From positions 1-64,000 of the IMG/VR virus record IMGVR_UViG_3300025840_000015: DNA of 64,000 nucleotides; one strand, 5' to 3'. Numbering within the stretch: position 1 is the first letter of the stretch; every line of letters starts with the position of its first letter. Below the pieces are notes generated by a model. It was not told the origin of the DNA. It was given only the letters and a program-made list of their open reading frames with translations, and ran no database searches. The position numbers and the translations under genes were made by a program. This DNA is from a virus. Of this stretch, positions 9,759-59,103 are shown piece after piece.

Positions 9759-11174
9759 TCACATGAGGTTCTGAACCTTGACTCTTCTGTAGTATACGTT
9801 CGAGTTGGTTGAGATGTTGTCAGGAGCAACAGATTCGGTTGCACCCTTAGCGAATGGATTAGCGACAACCGCATAGCGGGTCTTAAATCCAATCTTGGGC
9901 TGGAATGTTTGCTCACCAACGGCACGAACCATTTGGAGAGGAACGTATGGGCAATAGAATAGACCTGCATCATAAGGGTTGGTTCCCTTATAACCTACAA
10001 CGTAGAACTGGTTAGCAGCAACGTTTGCAGAATATGGATCGATGTAAACTCTATACTTACCTTGGAGAACACCAGCGAAGGTATTTCCAGTGTCATCAAC
10101 GTTCAAGTTAGCGTTGAGTGCAGGGGTATAATCCAGAACACCTGCCATCGTGAGTGCTGAAGCAACGTCTGCGGAGCAGAGGATCATGTTGCCCTTTCCT
10201 CTACGAGTTTGCTGTGCAATTGCGTTTGCATCGCGCTCGATCTGGAAGATAAGACCCTTGAACTTCTCAACTGACCAACGACCGTTTGAATCAACGTCAA
10301 GGTCAAAAGCACCAGGGGTAGCAGTGTTAACCTGAGCACCAGGAACAGCAACTTTATAGATGGTTCTGATGATTTCTCGGTTGATTTCAGCAAGAATTTC
10401 AGTGCTGAGGATGTTTGCCAACTCAGCTTCTGCATTCAGACCGTGGATTGCTCTGAGGTCTTGTGCAAGTTCTAGCGAATATTCTGCCTTGAGTGCGCGT
10501 GACTTAGCAGTTGCAGTAAGCTTTTCAATCGAGAACGCCATCTCGTTGAAATAGTTGTCTGCAGCATCTCCGAGTGCTTCAGAAGCACCGGTTTCCATAC
10601 CACCGCCAACGTTATACTGGCTATTGCCAGGAGCAGCGTTATTTGCTTGATTTGAAGCATCGAGGATTGAAGGATTGCTTCCACCTTGTGCCGTGGTTCC
10701 AAGACCAACGGTTCCATCGGTGAATCCACCTTCGAGATTGAGTCCCTTGTTCTGACCAGAGAATGCAGAATCGACTTCGTTGTAGAAAGTCTCTGCGCCA
10801 GTCTGGTTGTTGTAACGCGAACGCATTGCAAAGATGAGTCCGGTAGGACCATTCATTGGCTGAACGCCGCAAAGATCATAAGCGATCAGATTAGGCATTG
10901 AACGTCTGATTAGTGAAATCAGAACGGGATCAAAACCTGCAACAGGAGTTCCTGTTGTGTTTGAAGCACTACCACTAAATCCACCAGTTCCGGCAGAGTT
11001 TGTTGGGCTTGCTTCGCTGAGGAATGCTCTTTCCTCACGTAATTCTTTCTCTTGGTTCTCTAGCAGGATAGCAGTTACCGCTCTACGATGTGAATCTTTG
11101 ATTGGATCCATTCCTTGATAATCAAGGATTGGTGACCACTTCTCCTGCAGATATTCTGTATTGTACATCTGCAT
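9759..11174 (-). CDS. gp23: Major capsid protein
   Basis: GVQPMNGPTGLIFAMR, ELAQDLRAIHG, YCPYVPL, FQPKIGFKTRY. Confidence 0.99.
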   Translation of the reverse strand: MQMYNTEYLQEKWSPILDYQGMDPIKDSHRRAVTAILLENQEKELREERAFLSEASPTNSAGTGGFSGSASNTTGTPVAGFDPVLISLIRRSMPNLIAYDLCGVQPMNGPTGLIFAMRSRYNNQTGAETFYNEVDSAFSGQNKGLNLEGGFTDGTVGLGTTAQGGSNPSILDASNQANNAAPGNSQYNVGGGMETGASEALGDAADNYFNEMAFSIEKLTATAKSRALKAEYSLELAQDLRAIHGLNAEAELANILSTEILAEINREIIRTIYKVAVPGAQVNTATPGAFDLDVDSNGRWSVEKFKGLIFQIERDANAIAQQTRRGKGNMILCSADVASALTMAGVLDYTPALNANLNVDDTGNTFAGVLQGKYRVYIDPYSANVAANQFYVVGYKGTNPYDAGLFYCPYVPLQMVRAVGEQTFQPKIGFKTRYAVVANPFAKGATESVAPDNISTNSNVYYRRVKVQNLM

Positions 11175-49984: not shown

Positions 49985-50386
49985 TTATCTTGTTGCCTCT
50001 AGGATGAATGAGAACTGTTGTGTTGGAATTTCTTGTCCAATGACATCAAATATAATTGTAACTTCAAAAGTGTTTTCATCTGGTGATGGTTCCACTTCAA
50101 CATCGATATTTTCAACTCTTGGTTCATAATTTATGATAACTTCCTTTATTTTTTCCTGAATTTCAATGGCAGTTCCATAATCTACGAAGTCAAAGAGACT
50201 ACTCCTTACATCTGAACCAAGATCCGAGTTAAAAAAGCGCTCATTTTTCATTGTTTCAATCAAATTTCGAACCGAACGTATGATTGCATTACGATCTTTG
50301 ATAATTGGGATGTCTTTTGTTACCGGATGTGGATCAAAGGATAGACTAATATCTTTAAAAGATCTAGATACCCTAGTTACTGCCAT
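49985..50386 (-). CDS. gp25: Baseplate wedge / sheath initiator
   Basis: FKDISLSF, ERFFNSDLGS, NYEPRV. Confidence 0.95.
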   Translation of the reverse strand: MAVTRVSRSFKDISLSFDPHPVTKDIPIIKDRNAIIRSVRNLIETMKNERFFNSDLGSDVRSSLFDFVDYGTAIEIQEKIKEVIINYEPRVENIDVEVEPSPDENTFEVTIIFDVIGQEIPTQQFSFILEATR

Positions 50387-50999: not shown

Positions 51000-51170
51000 T
51001 TAGTCCTCGATTAGTGTAATTTTTGTTTCAATAGAGTCGGGAGATGGACATCCTGTCTTATAAAATTGCTCTGAGAGGATGTCCATGGTGTCAAAATACT
51101 CATCTTCGGTCAGATTTGTGTATAAAACCTGACCATCACTGAGAATTGAGTATCTTTCTCTGTCTGTCAT
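51000..51170 (-). CDS. 56-aa acidic hypothetical protein
   Basis: Hand translation MTDRERYSILSDGQVLYTNLTEDEYFDTMDILSEQFYKTGCPSPDSIETKITLIED; TGATG coupling to the upstream gene. Confidence 0.75.
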   Translation of the reverse strand: MTDRERYSILSDGQVLYTNLTEDEYFDTMDILSEQFYKTGCPSPDSIETKITLIED

Positions 51171-51934
51171 CAGATAACGCGAGTCTTTTCGTGTCCAACG
51201 CGAATGCGAGGATCACACCAAATCTCAAAACCTGCTGAGATTGCATCCAGACAGAAGGATACGTCCTCTCCACACATGTCCTGAACGTTACCAGACTCAA
51301 ATACTTGCATCTTGGGAGCAAACCAGGGATACTTCATCTCTTCGTGCTCAAATACTCCGTTCTTAATCAGGACCCATCCAAATCCTGTGTAGTCAACAGT
51401 GAATGGTTTGCGGCGCTTGGAGATACTCTCAAGCGTTTCGTGATTCATCACACCACCATTGCCACGGAAGTCCTCTTCGTCCAGCCAATGAGCAACTGAT
51501 GTGGTGCGACCGTCCTCAGTGCAATACCAACCTGCTGCAATTTCTTTGTCCATCAGAACCAATTGATAAAGTTTTTCTGTGTTGAAAACAATATCAGAAT
51601 CAATCCAAAGTTGATAATCATAATTAAGTTTTCCATCCCACGGAAGTTGATCAGGTCCACGCAGAACGTTCGCTCCTAAACACTTGCAACGTGCAAAGTT
51701 TACCATTGACGAATAATCCTGCGAGATCTGGATAGATGCTCCGCACTTCACCAAGTCAAATGCCATCTGCACAAAGGACTTGAGGAATTGATATGAAACT
51801 CCACGTCCTGGGAGACAAAATACGATTGTCTTGCCCCTCAGCATTTCTTTTGCCTGCTCATAATCCCACGTGGTGGCGGCGGAATCTGAATTCGTGGCAG
51901 GCGTTTTTGCTTTTACTGTAAATCCTTTAGACAT
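51170..51934 (-). CDS. GT-A fold glycosyltransferase-like protein
   Basis: WIDSDI (DxD) motif, GFGWVLIK, GEDVSFC, VGHEK. Confidence 0.8.
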   Translation of the reverse strand: MSKGFTVKAKTPATNSDSAATTWDYEQAKEMLRGKTIVFCLPGRGVSYQFLKSFVQMAFDLVKCGASIQISQDYSSMVNFARCKCLGANVLRGPDQLPWDGKLNYDYQLWIDSDIVFNTEKLYQLVLMDKEIAAGWYCTEDGRTTSVAHWLDEEDFRGNGGVMNHETLESISKRRKPFTVDYTGFGWVLIKNGVFEHEEMKYPWFAPKMQVFESGNVQDMCGEDVSFCLDAISAGFEIWCDPRIRVGHEKTRVI

Positions 51935-51956
51935 AATAGAAAGTTGTTACTGCAAT

Positions 51957-51985
51957 ATCATACGGTATTATGTAGGTTTTGTCAA
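51957..51985 (-). promoter_or_regulatory. Sigma70-like promoter
   Basis: TTGACA-N17-TATGAT upstream of the glycosyltransferase. Confidence 0.8.
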
Positions 51986-52158
51986 CCTCGGTCAGTCACG
52001 ATCAGACAATCTCCATCAACCTCGATGTTTAGGTTTGTGCCCTCATACCATCCCTTCTCATCGAGAATCCACTGGGGAATTGTGATAAAAAATTCACCGC
52101 TAACTGTATCCACCTCTACGGTTGTTAAATTTTCTGCGCGATTTTTTTTCATTTTCAT
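51982..52158 (-). CDS. AbrB/SpoVT-like small DNA-binding protein
   Basis: FITIPQWILDEKGWYEGTNLNIEVDG swapped-hairpin pattern; start trimmed to MKMKKN. Confidence 0.7.
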   Translation of the reverse strand: MKMKKNRAENLTTVEVDTVSGEFFITIPQWILDEKGWYEGTNLNIEVDGDCLIVTDRG

Positions 52159-52359
52159 GTTTTCTTCTCTAGTTTTTATATAGGACTTTGAGGATTTTTG
52201 TGGGCACGAAAAATTTTTTGAATCGAGAAGCGTTTTATATTTACTTCGCGATCGTAACACTTTATAGATTAGGGTAGTTAGGGGTTTTATATACGGGGGG
52301 GGCATGGATCGGATCATCGGCGCCCCGCCCGCGCGGGGCACTGTGTTTTACGAAGATTG

Positions 52360-52388
52360 GGGCGGCAGGGTATAAAGAACTGCCGCCC
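52360..52388. terminator. GC hairpin after the 139-aa ORF
   Basis: GGGCGGCAG-N11-CTGCCGCCC; the loop contains TATAAAGAA. Confidence 0.55.
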
Positions 52389-52400
52389 GCTAAGTGTAAC

Positions 52401-52820
52401 TTAGAGTCCGAACTTTTCCCGACAGATAGGACCGATTCCTAACTCTATTGAAAGAGGGTTAGTTAGTTCACGAGCGCAACACGAGCAGGTGCCAGTATTC
52501 TGCCCGTAAAGTTTAGCGGCAGAGTAAGGATCAGCGGCGACGGATTGCACCCGTTTGATTAGATCAACCTCACCCAGATTAGTGGCGTTAGAAGTGATCC
52601 AACCCAGATAAATGTTGCTCATTGTGCCCCACTGATTAACCTCTTTATCGTGAGAAAAAACATACATTTTTCCCTGATATTTCGAGGGTTTAACTATAAA
52701 GTCTTGGAATCGCATTGTGATTCGCTTAAGACCGCGATTCTGTGCCTCTTCAATTGCATTAATGATCCCGCTAAAGTTATGGGCGGGAATGGCATTGTGG
52801 CGGATGATGGGATGGCGCAT
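52401..52820 (-). CDS. Protein with C-terminal DUF6011-like zinc finger
   Basis: CSCCARELTNPLSIELGIGPIC. Confidence 0.8.
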   Translation of the reverse strand: MRHPIIRHNAIPAHNFSGIINAIEEAQNRGLKRITMRFQDFIVKPSKYQGKMYVFSHDKEVNQWGTMSNIYLGWITSNATNLGEVDLIKRVQSVAADPYSAAKLYGQNTGTCSCCARELTNPLSIELGIGPICREKFGL

Positions 52821-52915
52821 GATGCTTACCGGTGGTTTGGTTGGTGCGGGTTCTGCCCCGCGTGATCTAATGGTAAAGAGTAAGGGGGGGAGAATGCCCC
52901 CCCGTTAACATTAGT

Positions 52916-53215
52916 TCACACTCCCAGGAACCGGGCGATCCGCTCACGCTTGCGAAGCGGCAGGAGGCGTTTGTAGGAAACAAAGGAGCGGCGCCCAATG
53001 CTGTATTCATAGCGGCGCACCATCCCTTGTGCCGCCATCTCCTTAAGAAGGATGGAAACGGTGGTGCGTGCCTCCTTGGGCATCCCCAGCGCCCGGTTGA
53101 TCTCAGAGGGTCCAAGACCGTGGCGGGTTTTGTCCCCATCCATCGGCAGAACCGACAGGATCGCCCATTGGTAGGTTGCGCCGAATGCCTTGCGATCGGT
53201 GATGGTGGTGAACAT
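52916..53215 (-). CDS. Winged-helix DNA-binding protein
   Basis: LGPSEINRALGM...TVSILLKEMAAQGMVRR followed by a beta wing. Confidence 0.7.
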   Translation of the reverse strand: MFTTITDRKAFGATYQWAILSVLPMDGDKTRHGLGPSEINRALGMPKEARTTVSILLKEMAAQGMVRRYEYSIGRRSFVSYKRLLPLRKRERIARFLGV

Positions 53216-53279
53216 GGTTCAGTGGTGGTGAACGACCCCCATAAATTACCGGATCCACAGGAACCTGCCAACGTGGGGT

Positions 53280-53303
53280 TGTGACACCTTTAGGATTGGC
53301 ACA
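53280..53303. promoter_or_regulatory. 24-bp palindromic element (representative of about 12 copies)
   Basis: TGTGACACC-N6-ATTGGCACA, upstream of TTGGCA-N17-TAATTT on the minus strand. Confidence 0.7.
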
Positions 53304-53314
53304 ACCCCAGTTTG

Positions 53315-53506
53315 TATAAAGAATAAAACAAGGATTGCAAGATATAAAGAATAAGACAGGACTGAATGTAAAGAATAAACCACACCACTGACCAATAGTT
53401 TACATTCAATCCTGTGTTATTCTTTATACTCAGAGAAAATATAAAGAATAAAGAACTGATTAGGATTCATTCTTTATTCTTTATACTCAGTGTTAAGTAT
53501 AAAGAT
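53315..53506. repeat. AT-rich cluster of TATAAAGAATAA motifs forming inverted repeats
   Basis: 30-bp arms 53343-53372 / 53399-53428 (28/30 match); 16-bp perfect arms 53440-53455 / 53470-53485. Confidence 0.9.
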
Positions 53507-53512
53507 TAAGAT

Positions 53513-53623
53513 TTATTTCTTTTTCCTCCTTTTGTTTGCTGATTGTTTCTTCGGTGTTAGAATGTTCTTAAACCTTTTATCAGGACGTGATTTACCATCC
53601 CGATGAATCCATTTGTTTGCCAT
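53513..53623 (-). CDS. 36-aa basic peptide
   Basis: MANKWIHRDGKSRPDKRFKNILTPKKQSANKRRKKK. Confidence 0.5.
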   Translation of the reverse strand: MANKWIHRDGKSRPDKRFKNILTPKKQSANKRRKKK

Positions 53624-53628
53624 GTTCT

Positions 53629-53793
53629 TTATACAAACTGTGCAGGTGAACCACAAGACTGATAGAATCTAATCATTCTCTCTGCCTCTTCCTTTGTAGT
53701 GAAAGATTGTGTTCGCCATTGGCATTCATTATATGGTGATATGTATTTAATTGTGAAACCAATTGAATTAATTTGTTTTTGATTGTTGTTCAT
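53629..53793 (-). CDS. 54-aa hypothetical protein
   Basis: MNNNQKQINSIGFTIKYISPYNECQWRTQSFTTKEEAERMIRFYQSCGSPAQFV. Confidence 0.65.
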   Translation of the reverse strand: MNNNQKQINSIGFTIKYISPYNECQWRTQSFTTKEEAERMIRFYQSCGSPAQFV

Positions 53794-53880
53794 TGTTTGG
53801 TGTTTGTTTTAATGTTGTTTTATTGTATTGTGCGCACACATCTCGTCGAGATTCTGTATGCGCACATCTCGTCGAGATTT

Positions 53881-54015
53881 CTATACTTCCTCAACCTCCA
53901 ATCCAAGGAGTTGATCAACAGTAACCTCCAAAAGTGCTGCCAATTCTTCATCACTCATCCATGTGATGTCGATCGGCATTTCTTCGATCTGTGCGGTGGT
54001 GGTGAAGTGATCCAT
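53881..54015 (-). CDS. 44-aa acidic protein
   Basis: MDHFTTTAQIEEMPIDITWMSDEELAALLEVTVDQLLGLEVEEV, with an ACC-rich leader. Confidence 0.65.
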   Translation of the reverse strand: MDHFTTTAQIEEMPIDITWMSDEELAALLEVTVDQLLGLEVEEV

Positions 54016-54101
54016 GGTTTCTGGTGGTGGTGCGGGTTCCTGTCCCGCTTGCTCTAATGGTAAAGGGTAATGGGGGCGTTGCCGCCCCCCTGGCAGACGG
54101 T

Positions 54102-54311
54102 TCAGCGATTGGCACGACGGCGGCGGATCTCATCGCCATAGGTGTGCGCCTCATCGTCGTAACGACCCTCAGCGATGGGGTTCCATCCCCGCATTGCCTC
54201 AGCGGCGCGGCGGGCATCCTGGGCGCTCCAGAGCAGCGCCTCATCGCTCATGCTCTTGGCACGTGCCTCCCAAGTGGCGAAATCAGCGGCGGTGGCGTAA
54301 GTGGCGATCAT
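54102..54311 (-). CDS. 69-aa hypothetical early protein
   Basis: MIATYATAADF...YDDEAHTYGDEIRRR; start trimmed to follow the TACAAT box and leader. Confidence 0.7.
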   Translation of the reverse strand: MIATYATAADFATWEARAKSMSDEALLWSAQDARRAAEAMRGWNPIAEGRYDDEAHTYGDEIRRRRANR

Positions 54312-54450
54312 GGTCCGGTGGTGTGAACTGCGATAATTGTAGCAGATAATTGGGGGGGGAGAGAGGAGGAGATCGATCGAATCCCCATTGTGACGATTTA
54401 TGAACAGTCCACCGATTGTCTGATTCTGGCGCCGGGCGCGTGTAGAATAA

Positions 54451-54512
54451 GGGGACAATCAGATGAGGGGTGGGGTAACCCCGTTGATGAAATGGTCGCC
54501 ACGCCCCCTGCG
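54451..54512 (+). ncRNA. Candidate structured small RNA, copy A
   Basis: TAGAAT -10 box, then GGGGACAATC..GAGGGG..GGGGTAACCCC..GATGA..TCGCCAC GCCCCCTGC; paralogue at 56620. Confidence 0.5.
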
Positions 54513-54638
54513 CAATTTTATTTGCGAACAATTGTGAAATGTGTTGACCCGACCGGATCCCCTATGCTAGGATTGGGGTAGAACCTTTTGTATGTTACGG
54601 ATTGTTAAAGAAAGGGGGCGTTGCCGCCCCGTTGTGGT

Positions 54639-54926
54639 TCAATGGAAAAAGTCGTAAGGCGTTTGCTCTGTCGGATCATATCCCTCCCAGAGCATTGCTA
54701 CAGTGCTAGCAATGCTGCGCTCTGCCTTCCAGCAGTCTAGGATGACATCCAGTGCCCAACCGTCATCAAGGGTGGCAGGGGGGCATTCCTGCGCCTCCAC
54801 AGCATCCCAGAACTCTCCAAAGGACTCATCCTGCCAGCAGGATTCGGAATCCAGCGCCATGCGCCGGTTGTATTCTTGGCGCTCTTGGCGCTCCATCTCT
54901 GCAAGGGTGCTGTTGTGAAAATCCAT
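54639..54926 (-). CDS. 95-aa acidic hypothetical early protein
   Basis: MDFHNSTLAEMERQE..., own -10 box and ACC leader, GC hairpin downstream. Confidence 0.7.
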   Translation of the reverse strand: MDFHNSTLAEMERQERQEYNRRMALDSESCWQDESFGEFWDAVEAQECPPATLDDGWALDVILDCWKAERSIASTVAMLWEGYDPTEQTPYDFFH

Positions 54927-55001
54927 GGTTCCGGTGTGGTGCGGTTTGCTTTGAAAGTATAGAGGCAAAGGGAGCAGGGGTCAACCTGCCCCCCGTAGGG
55001 A

Positions 55002-55175
55002 TCAGACCGTCTGATCCTTAATGGCATCATGTACCTCTCCCAGCATGTCATACCAACGGGTTAGACCTTTTTGACCCATTTCGTGCCCTTTGGCGGACAG
55101 GAGCGCGATTCGGATCGTATCCCAATCGCCTGCGGCAAGGGTGACGGTTTTGTTTTTGGTGGTGGTGGTGCTCAT
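55002..55175 (-). CDS. 57-aa hypothetical early protein
   Basis: MSTTTTKNKTVTLAAGDWDTIRIALLSAKGHEMGQKGLTRWYDMLGEVHDAIKDQTV; promoter ATGACG-N17-TAGGAT. Confidence 0.65.
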   Translation of the reverse strand: MSTTTTKNKTVTLAAGDWDTIRIALLSAKGHEMGQKGLTRWYDMLGEVHDAIKDQTV

Positions 55176-55264
55176 CAGTCTCGGGTGTGGTGCGGGTTCC
55201 TGTCCCGCTTGAGCATATCCTACATCAGAAGGGGGGATCCGTCATCCCCCCCAGTGGACGGTGG

Positions 55265-55927
55265 TCAGACCGTCACAATCCTGTCTGCCTTTTTCTTTGC
55301 TGTTCCATGCGACGGAAAACATACAATAACGTTACGGTCGGAGTTAGCACAAATGCCGCAAGTTGCACATGTAACATTATCATGAATCTTTGCAGGGCAG
55401 ACTACACATTTGCGACCGTTGGTTGTTGTGAAGAACCGGCGCGATTCTGTGGAGGGAACAACAGCAACGGCAGGGATTCCGTGCTCTGTCATCACTTTAT
55501 CAGCAACCTCTACAGACTCACAGGATGCAGAGATTGTGAAACCTTTGCTGTTTGCTTCCTTGATAATTTCAAGGTTCTCAGTGTTGAGAACGTGGTGAGT
55601 GTAAGTGTAACCTTTGCGCCCTTTGTTTGCTGCCACCAGATCAGCAACACTGGCGCGATCGATGTTCCCATCAACATGGGGCAGATCACCGGATACGTTG
55701 TGGCGCCAGATCTGACCGCGTGCAATCCGGCGAACCTTAGAGAGGAATTCCTCCCATACAATGCCGGTTTCGGATACCTTGCGCCATGCCGCGCCCTGGA
55801 AGTGGAATTTGGCGTAGCACGCTTCCGCCATGGGGCAGGTAGCGGGGCAGGATGCCTGTTCAGTGGTGCTGGCAGGGATCCTGCCAAGTTGGGCGTTGCT
55901 GCTGGCGGGGTTGAAAGAGACGCGCAT
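55265..55927 (-). CDS. Cys-rich phage protein, possible Fe-S (radical-SAM-like) enzyme
   Basis: SCPATCPMAEACYA, RHNVSGDL, GYTYTH, CPA...TCATCGIC...H. Confidence 0.7.
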   Translation of the reverse strand: MRVSFNPASSNAQLGRIPASTTEQASCPATCPMAEACYAKFHFQGAAWRKVSETGIVWEEFLSKVRRIARGQIWRHNVSGDLPHVDGNIDRASVADLVAANKGRKGYTYTHHVLNTENLEIIKEANSKGFTISASCESVEVADKVMTEHGIPAVAVVPSTESRRFFTTTNGRKCVVCPAKIHDNVTCATCGICANSDRNVIVCFPSHGTAKKKADRIVTV

Positions 55928-55997
55928 TGGTGTGGTTGCGACTGATCAAACAATAACAGGGGGGAGAGCGCCTGCCAACCCCCCTAGTGGACGGTTA

Positions 55998-56477
55998 TCA
56001 GATCGCCACACCATCCTGGCGAAGGCGATCCACAAGACGGGATGCCATGGCGCCACAATGGGGGCACTTTGTGGCGTATTTGATCTCTGATTTAATTTTA
56101 TGATCTTTCACCCGTGCGAACTTATAACGATAAACTTTGCTAAGTGTAAGCATTGCCTGCCTTTTTGTAATGTCGTTTTCATCAATCTCACGGTAGATTG
56201 TCACCAGATTGTGATAGGACAGGGTAGGATTACGGCGGATTTGATTCAATCGTGAAACTGCAAGTTTGGCGAATACTGCATCACCAGTAGTTTCAGTGAC
56301 TACATCAATCAGATAATCGTGAAAAGCAATAAGTTCTTCTTCTTTCTTTTGCTGCTGTTCTTTCTGTTCTTCCTCTTTCTTGATTGATTCGATCTGGGAG
56401 GTAATTTCCCGGAAAGATTCCACGAACTGCTTCTGCAGTTCGTTCAGGTTTGCGGTGAGAGTTTGGAGGTCGCTCAT
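55998..56477 (-). CDS. 159-aa protein with N-terminal coiled coil and C-terminal CPHC
   Basis: Start trimmed to MSDLQTLTAN. Confidence 0.75.
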   Translation of the reverse strand: MSDLQTLTANLNELQKQFVESFREITSQIESIKKEEEQKEQQQKKEEELIAFHDYLIDVVTETTGDAVFAKLAVSRLNQIRRNPTLSYHNLVTIYREIDENDITKRQAMLTLSKVYRYKFARVKDHKIKSEIKYATKCPHCGAMASRLVDRLRQDGVAI

Positions 56478-56619
56478 TGTTCTGGGTTGGGGTGGAATCG
56501 GATCCGTTTGTCCGATGGGCACAGTATGCCCCGGCAAGACGGGGCAGATCAACCAACCCTGTGCCACTACCAGAACCGTCCACAAGGGCGTTGTAAGGTC
56601 TTAAAATGCTCTATTGTAT

Positions 56620-56682
56620 GGGGACAATCGAAAGAGGGGAGGGGTATCCCTGTAGACGACAATACATCGCCACCGCCCCTGC
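56620..56682 (+). ncRNA. Candidate structured small RNA, copy B
   Basis: TATTGT -10 box, then GGGGACAATC..GAGGGG..GGGGTATCCC..GACGA..TCGCCAC CGCCCCTGC. Confidence 0.5.
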
Positions 56683-56707
56683 CATAAAATAATTGTTTCA
56701 ATATGTT

Positions 56708-56880
56708 AAAAAAAAGGATCCCGCACCACCAGGATCCTCTAGACTCCAATCACCAGATACGCTATACCCATATTTTATCTTAACGTTCTCGCAGAGTGAC
56801 TTTTTTTTTCTTTACAATGTGGGCAAACTCCTTCCCACACGGATAACTTTATTTTAGAGAGGCAAATCCCTTCCTCTTAA
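56708..56880 (-). ncRNA. Candidate non-coding RNA or long 3' UTR with twin hairpins and a terminator
   Basis: AGAGG-AAGGGATTTG-CCTCT and GTGGG-AAGGAGTTTG-CCCAC hairpins, ending in AGGATCC-N10-GGATCCT plus a T run. Confidence 0.45.
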
Positions 56881-56882
56881 GA

Positions 56883-57077
56883 TTATTGTATCATCCAATG
56901 TGGGTCATTGTCAAGTGCAACCCAGAAAAAGTTACGATTGTTTGCACTTCTTAAGAATAGTTTGTTGTTCACGATTTGTTCAATAATGCATACAGAATCG
57001 CGTGCCATTAAATTGGCGAATCTGTTTTTTGCTTTTGATGAAATCGGTTTGACTTGAATGGTTTCCATGATGTCCAT
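56883..57077 (-). CDS. 64-aa hypothetical protein
   Basis: VKPISSKAKNRFANLM...FFWV...DPHW; TATAAT upstream. Confidence 0.75.
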   Translation of the reverse strand: MDIMETIQVKPISSKAKNRFANLMARDSVCIIEQIVNNKLFLRSANNRNFFWVALDNDPHWMIQ

Positions 57078-57171
57078 TGCAATGTGTTCATTATAATGGA
57101 TGGTGATAATCTCGTCGAGATTGTGTGTGCCAATTGTTATGGTGTCACAATCTCGACGAGATCCTTTTAGA

Positions 57172-57393
57172 TCACTGCTTGACGAGAGTCAGTTGATTCT
57201 CACGCAGTGCATTGTTGAAAAACTTACCAACGCTACCATCAGAATTGATGGTTTCCGTCAGAGTCGAAATAAACTGTTCTGCATTAACCACACCGTAGGT
57301 ATAGTCTCGACCACCAGTAAAGGTGACGGTCACTTGATCATCGACAACATCAGAGATAGATTCGATGGCGGAAGAAGTGAACTTAGGGAACAT
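57172..57393 (-). CDS. KTSC-domain protein
   Basis: SSAI..I....VTVTF..G..Y.Y.V...SVGKFFN. Confidence 0.8.
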   Translation of the reverse strand: MFPKFTSSAIESISDVVDDQVTVTFTGGRDYTYGVVNAEQFISTLTETINSDGSVGKFFNNALRENQLTLVKQ

Positions 57394-57464
57394 GATTTAG
57401 AATTGTGTAAAGGAACAGATGGAGTCTTTAGGGCGCTGCCGTTCCCTGTGTGATCAGTCTAGCA

Positions 57465-57611
57465 TCAGAACTCGATGGTGTCTAGTGTAGGACAAACAGT
57501 TTCGCCAGATTCACAAGTGTCACTCCCATCACAGAGAACATCAAGAATTCGAAGGATTTCTGATCCATTGGAACCTTTGCGGAGTGCGTGGATGTAAAGT
57601 TCTTTAGTCAT
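57465..57611 (-). CDS. 48-aa hypothetical protein
   Basis: MTKELYIHALRKGSNGSEILRILD; TAGAAT upstream. Confidence 0.65.
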   Translation of the reverse strand: MTKELYIHALRKGSNGSEILRILDVLCDGSDTCESGETVCPTLDTIEF

Positions 57612-57681
57612 TGTTGCCTTTGGTTGACTCTGTAATTCTAAGGGCATGGCGGGGACATTGCTGCCCCCCTTGTGCCACTGC

Positions 57682-58188
57682 TCAGACTGTCATAAGGAGA
57701 GCAGGTTGTTCTGTAACGAAATCATACTCTTGGGTGTTAGTGTCACCCCAACCCAGTTTCCAACACTGCCATCCCAAACCAGGAGTAAACAGATAGCACC
57801 ATTCCTCTCCACAATCACCTGAGAGAAACTCATCGAAGTTGCTCATCCTAGGAGGAGCATCTTCACCTCGCTCACTATAATACAGTGGAGCAGGTTTTGC
57901 TTTTACTGGAGAATAGACCCACTGTTCATTATCAGTGGTGATATATTCTACAGTTCTGTTACCCTCAGAATCATAGATCTCTTTTTTGAGAGGAACAGAA
58001 TCCCAACGATGTGTGGTGTGCAACTGCCCCATATCACCACCGTTGATGAGTTCTTCTACCTGTTCTTTATACAGGTAGTTGTCAATAAGTTGGCGACCAT
58101 TGTGTTGAATGTAACCATCATAATGACAGTAAACACTAATGATTTGATCGGGTCCGAGAGCAAGACCGATGCGAGAGCGAGTTCCCAT
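57682..58188 (-). CDS. Conserved phage hypothetical protein
   Basis: MGTRSRIG...SVYCHYDGY...GEEWCYLF pattern. Confidence 0.8.
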   Translation of the reverse strand: MGTRSRIGLALGPDQIISVYCHYDGYIQHNGRQLIDNYLYKEQVEELINGGDMGQLHTTHRWDSVPLKKEIYDSEGNRTVEYITTDNEQWVYSPVKAKPAPLYYSERGEDAPPRMSNFDEFLSGDCGEEWCYLFTPGLGWQCWKLGWGDTNTQEYDFVTEQPALLMTV

Positions 58189-58254
58189 GGTGTGTTGGGT
58201 GAACTGAGATCAGTGTAGCAGGTTTGGGGGATGCTGTCATCCCCCTGTCAGGAA

Positions 58255-58431
58255 TCAGTAACTCAGATCCTCCAGATATTCTGTGAAGATTTCTGACACT
58301 TCATCCCATTGGGCGTCCGTCAGAAAACCGCACTGATCCTCCATCCAGTTGGAAACCATAGACCAGTCTGCATCCATCTCTTGGATGAACTGGGGCAGGG
58401 ACTGGAGAGCACTGATGAAATTAGAAGTCAT
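58255..58431 (-). CDS. 58-aa acidic protein
   Basis: MTSNFISALQSLPQFIQEMDADWSMVSNWMEDQCGFLTDAQWDEVSEIFTEYLEDLSY. Confidence 0.65.
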   Translation of the reverse strand: MTSNFISALQSLPQFIQEMDADWSMVSNWMEDQCGFLTDAQWDEVSEIFTEYLEDLSY

Positions 58432-58555
58432 GGTCGGAGTTGAGTTCCTGTTGAAAGTCTAGCATGGATTCCTGCATTTCGGGGATGTCGAAGATCTCAC
58501 CCGGAGAATCCATGATCTCATTCCAGAGATCAGTGTCGATCAGATCAAATTCCAT
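58421..58555 (-). CDS. 44-aa acidic protein
   Basis: MEFDLIDTDLWNEIMDSPGEIFDIPEMQESMLDFQQELNSDHDF. Confidence 0.6.
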   Translation of the reverse strand: MEFDLIDTDLWNEIMDSPGEIFDIPEMQESMLDFQQELNSDHDF

Positions 58556-58739
58556 GAAGATTCTTAAGGTCTTGGATGGTGTGAGAGAGACCTGCCTTGC
58601 AGTATCCTACAGCATATGGGTAGGAACAGTCAAGATCACAGTCAGGTTTTGTTAGGTCTTGGGGACGTGCTGAGTATAGAACTTTTTGCATCCATTCCAG
58701 TTCCTGAATGATTTTTTCCAGTTTGGTTTTGTCGGTCAT
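58545..58739 (-). CDS. 64-aa hypothetical protein
   Basis: SYPYAVGYCK motif; palindrome and promoter upstream. Confidence 0.7.
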   Translation of the reverse strand: MTDKTKLEKIIQELEWMQKVLYSARPQDLTKPDCDLDCSYPYAVGYCKAGLSHTIQDLKNLHGI

Positions 58740-58818
58740 TGGAGTTGGGTTCCGAACAAACGAATCATCTCACGGATTCCGGAGGGATGCAACGTGCCAG
58801 TGGACAGTCTATAAAGTG

Positions 58819-58944
58819 TCACCTGCGATAGGGAGAACTCCACCATTTGCGGTATGCAGTGTAAAGAATCACTGCAGTCGAAACGATACCGACCAGACCC
58901 AGAACTGTCACAGGGTCGCCGGAGAAATCATAAGTGTCTGGCAT
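58819..58944 (-). CDS. 41-aa single-TM peptide
   Basis: MPDTYDFSGDPVTVLGLVGIVSTAVILYTAYRKWWSSPYRR. Confidence 0.6.
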   Translation of the reverse strand: MPDTYDFSGDPVTVLGLVGIVSTAVILYTAYRKWWSSPYRR

Positions 58945-58950
58945 AATGAA

Positions 58951-59103
58951 TCAAAAAAACGGATCAACTTCGCGAATTGTAACATCAACTTCCTCTCCAC
59001 CTTCAAGACCTAAAAGGTCTCTCCAGTCGAGTTTGTCAATGTCCAGATCATCATAACATGCAATGTCAAGTGTGACTGTGACTAAACGCTTTTGTGCTAG
59101 CAT
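58951..59103 (-). CDS. 50-aa acidic protein
   Basis: MLAQKRLVTVTLDIACYDDLDIDKLDWRDLLGLEGGEEVDVTIREVDPFF. Confidence 0.65.
   Translation of the reverse strand: MLAQKRLVTVTLDIACYDDLDIDKLDWRDLLGLEGGEEVDVTIREVDPFF

Follow-up and report, generated by a model that had tools for sequence, protein, structure and literature searches.

A conserved cyanophage small RNA with an invariant terminator hexaloop and possible targets in early-gene leaders

The small RNA gene and its surroundings

The segment considered here lies on the minus strand of a 64-kb window, i.e. the first 64,000 nucleotides of a 116-kb IMG/VR virus record (IMGVR_UViG_3300025840_000015). Between positions 56878 and 56708 of this window, comparative sequence analyses reveal what is very probably the gene for a conserved, phage-specific small non-coding RNA (sRNA). 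All genes of the window are carried by the minus strand, its large open reading frames (ORFs) match T4-type baseplate and head-closure families, and the nearest cultured relatives for the region of the segment are Synechococcus phages. The GC content of the genome body is about 30%, and in the region from 51 to 59 kb small-gene cassettes that are GC-rich (up to 57%) form a mosaic with AT-rich ones. No tRNA or tmRNA gene was found by ARAGORN in the window.

The original prediction described this segment as ORF-free, with a product that was either a trans-acting sRNA or an RNA derived from a 3' untranslated region (UTR). There is no conserved ORF, although two short mechanical ORFs overlap the segment, and the results point to a discrete small RNA with its own promoter and terminator and with covarying helices, not to a passive 3' UTR. 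The assignment as non-coding follows from insertions and deletions among the homologues that are not multiples of three, together with compensatory changes in the stems.

A sigma-70-type promoter precedes the segment at 56914-56885 (minus strand), with TTGACA at 56914-56909, an 18-nt spacer and a TG-extended TACAAT at 56890-56885. It is the top promoter-like site between positions 50000 and 64000 (11/12 with TG) and it sits within the last codons of an upstream ORF of 64 amino acids. Since the promoter ends about 7 nt before the first hairpin, the unit consists of the promoter, some 170 nt and the terminator. The arrangement TTGACA-N17/18-TACA(A/C)T is kept in S-SRM01 and in L007, L008, L125, L132, L082, L129 and L144 (L-numbers are labels for the related loci and contigs that were compared); in L008 it is conserved even though the overlapping 64-aa ORF has decayed. 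We predict that the sRNA has its own strong promoter, of the host (early) type.

The predicted transcript of about 170 nt (56878-56708, minus strand) is delimited by this promoter and the terminator, and is supported by two alignments, A1 and A2, and by a covariance model, R1, which was built from A2 and which matches the family core of about 120 nt at 56841-56707 (E=5e-18). Outside the core there is an extra 5' hairpin, AGAGG-AAGGGAUUUG-CCUCU (56877-56858), which on comparison of its sequence and fold with the P1 hairpin of L072 and S-SRM01 is a second copy of the freshwater-type P1, present only in the phage of the window. In both alignments the order of the core is P1 with its GGAA...GUU.GCC frame, an invariant AAAGU.AC, a variable middle and the terminator. 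In the window, P1 has the sequence GUGGG-AAGGAGUUUG-CCCAC (56838-56819), with the frame that is invariant in A2 (GGAA..GUU.GCC) and a purine-rich centre, and the AAAGU.AC columns, likewise invariant in A2, lie within the conserved AAAGUCACUCUGCGAG at 56803-56788. A UCACUC within the latter pairs with GGUGAU at 56754-56749 to give a probable long-range helix, P2, as indicated by RNAalifold and by a per-sequence search. The family consensus for P2 is UYACYC with GRGUGA, the second strand lying just 5' of the terminator; its changes are one-sided and consistent (C-G/U-A/U-G), clean double compensations were not seen, and a helix of at least five contiguous base pairs was not found in the L129 type. 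P2 is likely, but less well supported than P1 and the terminator hairpin, P3. The latter (56740-56713) comprises a 5' arm at 56740-56730, a loop at 56729-56724 and a 3' arm at 56723-56713, and reads on the minus strand AGAGGAUCCUG-GUGGUG-CGGGAUCCUUU followed by a U tract, of which the U8 stretch at 56715-56708 overlaps the end of the 3' arm; the intrinsic terminator at 56740-56708 has the position and sequence that had been predicted.

The upstream 64-aa ORF (57077-56883, minus strand), the 3' end of which carries the sRNA promoter, belongs to phrog_1653, a family of unknown function; its product has no match in Pfam, and in PHROGs it matches this family only. In five marine cyanomyoviruses, i.e. 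Bellamy, S-SM2, S-CREM1, DSL-LC02 and S-B05, homologues of the ORF are not followed by the sRNA, other ORFs following directly, which implies that the sRNA is a separate module. In the freshwater and 'marine2' clades the conserved promoter lies a few bases 5' of P1, whereas L072-type contigs have a different, operator-rich promoter with TGcTATAAT ahead of the sRNA. In S-SKS1-like contigs P1 begins 2-8 nt past the 3' end of a tRNA gene, so that in this clade the 5' end of the RNA would come from tRNA processing. The RNA is thus predicted to arise in two independent ways, either from a promoter in the end of an upstream ORF or by processing of a tRNA precursor, and to be an autonomous mobile module rather than the 3' UTR of one gene.

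Two other features of the surroundings are conserved. Operator-like palindromes, ATCTCG(A/T)CGAGAT, occur in two to three copies around AT-rich early-gene promoters, including that of the 64-aa ORF (window 57095-57170 and 53825-53880, minus strand; L007 1150-1250, L008 2460-2550 and L125 3920-4020), and L072-type contigs have in their place repeated ACTAGAT boxes around the sRNA promoter; both types of site suggest a DNA-binding regulator of the region. Directly downstream of the sRNA terminator, at 56470-56705 (minus strand), is a second conserved non-coding module, which is repeated at 54305-54545 (minus strand) and which aligns with L007 1556-1772, L008 2804-3022, L010 1650-1865 and L125 4500-4622. 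It consists of a GCAGGGGCGGUGGCGAUG...GGGAUACCCCUCCCCUC block, a TTGnnn..TAnnnT promoter-like site and a long 5' UTR with a conserved GUGGCACAAGG...GGGGCAU ahead of variable genes.

A phage-specific RNA family with an invariant loop

Pattern scans of IMG/VR cyanophage contigs gave about 60 homologous loci, with one copy per genome, and distant BLAST searches matched only S-SKS1 and S-SRM01. In S-SKS1, a marine siphovirus (L009, i.e. HQ633071 178089-178500), the homologue directly follows a tRNA-Leu gene, at an unannotated site (L009 1470-1596); the same stretch (L009 1179-1596) contains a second tRNA (Rfam, 1179-1251) that is unannotated in S-SKS1, which annotates one tRNA here. In S-SRM01, a freshwater myovirus, the site of the homologue overlaps only the 3' end of the coding sequence of the 64-aa homologue, at the promoter region. 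R1 finds exactly one copy in each of S-SKS1, S-SRM01 and the genome of the window.

The alignments provide strong evidence for the two main hairpins. All ten pairs of the terminator and three of the five pairs of P1 covary, i.e. 13 of 15 pairs have changed on both sides; 96.8% of the cells are paired overall, with 100% in the terminator stem, and none of 500 shuffles reached the observed score.

The family was not found outside these phages. A near-identity search of 50,697 phage records gave no match. Rfam 15 (E up to 5-10, and up to 10 for the window element) has no match to the window element or to its homologues in S-SKS1 and S-SRM01, the unmatched families including T-box, Yfr1/2, 6S, tmRNA, wcaG, manA, glnA and PhotoRC. 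R1 has no match in a sample of 151 Cyanobacteriia genomes and 3 further cyanobacterial genomes, and a scan of 185,579 prokaryote species genomes for the exact motif yielded nothing beyond chance matches in coding DNA. The element appears, from these searches, to be a phage-specific RNA family outside Rfam 15. A published catalogue of about 10,000 candidate viral structured RNAs (PMC10690425) may include the element. Descent from a cyanobacterial host sRNA was considered and rejected, neither the exact motif nor R1 revealing a homologue in the genomes scanned, as was a small ORF or start-stop (AUGUAA) after the Shine-Dalgarno (SD)-like P1 loop, the AUG of which is not conserved.

For the terminator loop, the original prediction took 10 nt of the complementary stretch to be exposed, whereas the predicted loop is the hexaloop GUGGUG (56729-56724), with the flanking U and CG paired. 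We counted the invariance of this loop in homologues that had been sampled without use of the loop sequence. The 5' motif alone retrieved 58 loci, among them 51 complete family members, every one with GUGGUG at the apex; homologues retrieved only via the neighbouring DUF7227 gene, including the decayed copy in L411, add 6/6, to give 57/57 overall. At least 17 different stems bear the loop, e.g. CCUG/CGGG, CGGG/CCCG, GGGA/UCCC, UGGA/UCCA, UGGG/CCCA, GGUG/CGCC and CAGG/CCUG. Terminators with a GUGGUG hexaloop occur once per complete genome, as that of the sRNA. The comparison indicates that within P3 only the six loop bases are constrained and that the bases on either side, which account for most of the 16-nt match described below, belong to a freely covarying stem; the terminator hexaloop is predicted to be a functional site.

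Two candidate roles for this loop were rejected. The loop region resembles GGGUGGNACC and could, like a T-box, pair with the ACCA ends of tRNAs; against this, Rfam gives no T-box match, conservation is confined to GUGGUG and the flanks in the stem covary. Pairing with the adjacent tRNA-Leu, at its 3' end, would need stem bases that vary. The decayed copy in L411 (4872-4980), in which AAT-rich simple repeats replace the 5' half, keeps the terminator with a compensated stem, GGAUCCUG-GUGGUG-CAGGAUCC.

Early-gene leaders complementary to the terminator

The analysis started from the complementarity of this terminator to early leaders. As predicted, 5'-UGGUGGUGCGGGAUCC-3' (56731-56716) is complementary at 15 of 16 positions to GGAACCCGCACCACCA (54040-54025), in the leader of the gene at 53881-54015, and the genes starting at 55175, 52820 and 54926 have leaders with shorter versions of the target. 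The leader of the gene at 53881-54015 (54050-54016; all leaders are on the minus strand) has a 5' hairpin, GCGGG-ACAGGAA-CCCGC (54048-54032), followed by ACCACCACCAGAAACC. That of the gene at 55002-55175 (55210-55176), which has orthologues in L125 and L132, has a hairpin as in 54016-54050 and contains GGAACCCGCACCAC at 55200-55187. In the leader of the gene starting at 54926 (54955-54927), CCGCACCACACCGGAACC lies directly 5' of the AUG, with CCGCACCAC at 54944-54936. The leader of the gene at 52401-52820 (52862-52821) has GCGGGG-CAGAA-CCCGC and then ACCAACC, with GAACCCGCACCA at 52853-52842 and an imperfect core, CACCAA. A CACCAC box at 54323-54318 is present in the leader of the gene starting at 54311 (54330-54312), and CACCACCAC at 53230-53222 in that of the gene starting at 53215 (53235-53216), which has weak helix-turn-helix-like matches below the Pfam cut-offs.

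CACCAC is found 6-25 nt 5' of the AUG in five of the six GC-rich early genes between 52.8 and 55.2 kb. In this region each cassette combines a small ORF with a leader of about 30 nt that lacks an SD sequence, preceded by a Gn-loop-Cn hairpin and a TAnnAT box; such a box and a short leader come after each of the hairpins near 55255, 54995, 54630, 54087 and 52903. On inspection, the leaders fit the published description of promoter-early stem-loop (PeSL) cassettes (PMC4122927). The sRNA followed by an array of CACCAC leaders of the (U)UCACACCAC type is also found in L125, S-SRM01, L132/L143 and L129/L140/L144.

Across 51000-59000, cassettes of host-like GC content (55-57%) alternate with cassettes of about 30-40%, the GC-rich ones being delimited by PeSL-like Gn-loop-Cn hairpins and -10 boxes. 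Between cassettes, in an ORF-poor, AT-rich stretch at 53300-53510 (minus strand), TTATTCTTTATA / TATAAAGAATAA is repeated at least six times in direct or inverted orientation, an array that resembles iterons or a regulator-binding array. Further away, at 26351-48032 (minus strand), the baseplate genes are interspersed with two giant ORFs, of 4266 and 2427 aa, which presumably encode virion structural or fibre proteins.

With at most one mismatch, the 11-mer CCCGCACCACC occurs 5 times in the window, compared with 0.06 expected from shuffles; four of the five occurrences are paralogous leaders, so the independent event is that of the terminator versus the leader family. Given the CACCAC core, the flanks match at 9 of 10 positions (p ~9e-4, composition-preserving permutation of flank bases). 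Among 11,614 sense-strand windows of the 116-kb record, the best non-self duplex partner of the hairpin is the leader of 53881-54015 (54026; z ~-5), which is nearly equalled by a coding site at 55889. Once opening costs have been set against hybridisation, pairing of the loop alone yields about -6 kcal/mol, and invasion over 10-16 nt about -8 to -10 kcal/mol, the latter figure applying to the leaders at 54026 and 55186; opening costs 0 for the hexaloop, 6-14 kcal/mol for the terminator and 4-6 kcal/mol for the leader hairpin. On these models an interaction of the hexaloop with the leaders is feasible, not compelling.

Candidate functions and relation to known RNAs

One possible function, which we put forward tentatively, is that the sRNA docks on the CACCAC boxes of neighbouring early leaders and represses them. 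The hexaloop GUGGUG would be the seed of a trans-acting antisense RNA and would kiss a single-stranded CACCAC box 6-25 nt upstream of the AUG, the targets being leaders that are CA-rich and have no SD sequence, in the small early-gene cassettes that come next downstream of the sRNA gene. In the phage of the window, the contact could extend into the 5' stabilising hairpin of two leaders, to give 16-17 nt of pairing. With the ribosome landing site occupied and the 5' hairpin opened, several early mRNAs would be less translated and less stable as the sRNA accumulates. T4 shuts off its early genes with RegA and RegB, of which the sRNA would be an RNA counterpart. A broader proposal, i.e. that of a portable early shut-off system in which one sRNA serves myo- and siphoviruses alike, with GUGGUG as the key and CACCAC as the lock in mobile SD-less cassettes, is a little more doubtful again; if true, any early cassette gained by recombination would fall under the temporal control of the resident sRNA.

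The strongest comparative support for a functional link between sRNA and leaders comes from relatives retrieved via DUF7227, in which CACCAC is present in 20 of 262 putative leaders at loci with the sRNA compared with 4 of 263 at loci without it, i.e. with none within 10 kb (p=7e-4), a fivefold difference. CACCAC and ACCACA are specifically enriched in the loci with the sRNA, whereas CAACCA, ACCAAC and the overall C+A content are equal between the two sets. In freshwater-clade leaders (-30 to -1) CACCAC is 8th in count and 16th in z-score of the 4096 hexamers. The DUF7227 homologue of L421, a relative in which the search revealed no sRNA within 10 kb, has a leader (about 9940-10000) that keeps the 5' hairpin, GCGGGA-CAGAGA-UCCCGC, followed by CCCACC in place of ACCACC, an anecdotal observation that fits loss of the box without the sRNA.

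Several observations weigh against repression of the leaders by the loop. Relatedness among the loci confounds the comparison between those that have the sRNA and those that lack it. The S-SKS1-like clade, which is the largest, keeps the loop, yet its leaders are AT-rich and CACCAC ranks 323 in them; a conserved leader target was not found in S-SKS1, where the best flank match is off the predicted ORF starts and apparently inside coding sequence. The originally proposed shared early-leader target thus stands in so far as the apex is constrained and its complement is typical of adjacent early leaders in the lineage of the window, but does not extend to this clade. Co-variation of the extended match across phages, which had been proposed as a check, gave a negative result: of the 19 genomes or contigs compared, only three have the resident sRNA variant as their best flank match, and the orthologues of the leader at 55186 are unchanged in L125 and L132 though the stems of the resident sRNAs differ. 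Over 15 nt, the L132 leader AGGUUCCCGCACCAC is exactly complementary to the terminator of the S-SKS1/L082 type and not to its own, which could reflect cassette shuffling among phages or descent from an inverted piece of terminator. Six base pairs from a hairpin loop are a weak interaction, and CACCAC is one of several CA-rich leader words, of which CACACC and CCACAC are commoner, so part of the match could be compositional. P1 and AAAGU, which are as conserved as the loop, are left unexplained. The literature searched contained no transcriptome of either S-SRM01 or S-SKS1.

About as probable as repression of the leaders is that the element is a stable phage RNA, the invariant P3 loop, P1 frame and AAAGU of which serve a picocyanobacterial host RNA or an RNA-binding protein, complementarity to the phage's own leaders being a by-product of their CA-rich composition or a lineage-specific addition. 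Such a target is consistent with the equal invariance of the loop in S-SKS1-like siphoviruses without CACCAC leaders, with the invariance of several further parts of the RNA, with the known carriers all infecting Synechococcus-type hosts and with the absence of flank co-variation. It leaves unexplained the specific enrichment of CACCAC and ACCACA at sRNA loci and the fact that in three clades the sRNA is physically linked to arrays of CACCAC leaders; the 9/10 flank match and the exact 15-nt match in L132 are unlikely to arise from composition alone, and no candidate host target emerged.

Shared ancestry without function is unlikely. A piece of the terminator would have been copied, inverted, into a mobile promoter-leader cassette, with no mutual regulation, and the hairpin would be the terminator of an RNA with another job. 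The leaders do sit in PeSL-like cassettes, which recombination shuffles (PMC2839356, PMC4122927), and the AGGAACCCGCACCAC leader matches the window-type terminator almost exactly, as the AGGUUCCCGCACCAC leader does the S-SKS1/L082 type, neither tracking the resident sRNA. The leader type is found in only a few freshwater contigs and the terminator is old and widespread, so that any descent runs from terminator to leader, opposite in direction to the inverted leader relic that the original prediction had offered as its alternative. An inverted hairpin, however, stays a hairpin, whereas the leader uses the shared bases as the loop and the 3' arm of another stem; moreover, neither the presence of CACCAC in many unrelated, flank-less leaders nor the loop invariance is explained, and complementarity over 15-16 nt should have consequences if both RNAs are made early in one cell.

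Two further explanations are very improbable. One is that no separate RNA exists and that the segment serves the 64-aa gene as 3' UTR and terminator, or the genes downstream as a cis-acting attenuator; this would fit the place of the segment between the 64-aa ORF and the next transcription unit with a terminator at its end, but not its own conserved promoter, with a predicted RNA start just 5' of the first hairpin, nor its occurrence without the 64-aa gene (after tRNAs, behind the L072-type promoter and beside the decayed ORF of L008), nor that of the gene without the element in the five marine myoviruses, nor the downstream genes that differ among clades. Equally improbable, and speculative, is an anti-SD clamp, in which the P1 loop (AAGGAG:CUCCUU) and the hexaloop (GUGGU:AUCAC) would pair with the single-stranded 3' tail of 16S rRNA and, by masking the anti-SD, favour the SD-less mRNAs of the phage: a universal host target would explain the invariance in all clades, each variant of P1 has an SD-like centre (GGAG, GGGG, AGGG, GAGG, UGGG) and the early phage leaders have no SD sequences, but that centre is variable within an invariant frame, looks structural rather than like a pairing site and may be a constrained tetraloop, and GUGGU:AUCAC is only 5 bp including a wobble.

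In loop-seed sRNAs of Gram-positive bacteria, i.e. Staphylococcus aureus RNAIII (hairpins H7/H13/H14) and RsaE/RoxS, short invariant hairpin-loop motifs, including that of the terminator, contact the ribosome-binding regions of several mRNAs, and one RNA has many targets. The sRNA described here is similar in having an invariant terminator hexaloop complementary to a box 5' of several start codons. It differs in that the seeds of RNAIII and RsaE are C-rich (UCCC) and pair with the SD, whereas here a G/U-rich loop faces CACCAC in SD-less leaders; there is no sequence or structural homology, and the cyanophage RNA is a functional analogue at most and not a member. With type I 3'-UTR sRNAs, such as MicL and DapZ, it shares a promoter in the last codons of the upstream ORF and a terminator shared with the gene, but the cyanophage element is phage-encoded and portable, occurs without the ORF (after tRNAs, in the S-SKS1 clade) and has no homology to them. 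The T4 small stable RNAs C and D, located where the tRNA cluster ends, are comparable in position, rnaD and rnaC following tRNA-Arg as the S-SKS1-like sRNA follows tRNA genes, which implies release by tRNA-processing enzymes. They have tRNA-like 3' ends (T-arm-like GGGUUCGAAUCCC; ...GCACCA) and no GUGGUG terminator, and were rejected as relatives, R1 having no match in T4 and the sequences being dissimilar; only the post-tRNA position is shared.

The PeSL cassettes of T4-type phages have been described as modules of recombination and regulation (PMC2839356, PMC4122927). The putative targets resemble them in lying in repeated modules of Gn-loop-Cn hairpin, early -10 box, leader and small ORF within a hyperplastic region of mosaic GC content, whereas a CACCAC box and a 5' hairpin in the leader characterise the lineage of the window. 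We found no report in the literature of a trans-acting RNA that recognises PeSL leaders. The known cyanophage non-coding RNAs, i.e. the CfrI antisense RNA, PhotoRC-II, wcaG, manA and glnA (PMC9964418), do not match the element and are cis-regulatory or cis-antisense, whereas the present element is predicted to be free-standing, with a promoter and a terminator. In function it comes nearest to loop-seed sRNAs such as RNAIII and RsaE, and in position to the type I 3'-UTR sRNAs and to the T4 stable RNAs C and D, but it belongs to none of these groups.

Very few phage-encoded small RNAs have known roles, and we know of no characterised example in cyanophages that is free-standing and acts in trans. 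Cyanophages shape primary production in both marine and freshwater environments. The family described here is compact and widespread, with members in some 60 contigs, in two cultured phages and in both of two virus morphotypes, and has an unusually clear signature, i.e. a fully covarying stem around an invariant loop of six bases. Even with a host target, it merits a public covariance model and should be annotated in both S-SKS1 and S-SRM01. Docking of the loop on the CACCAC leaders, if it occurs, would explain both how SD-less early genes are turned off in T4-like cyanophages and how new cassettes join the infection programme.

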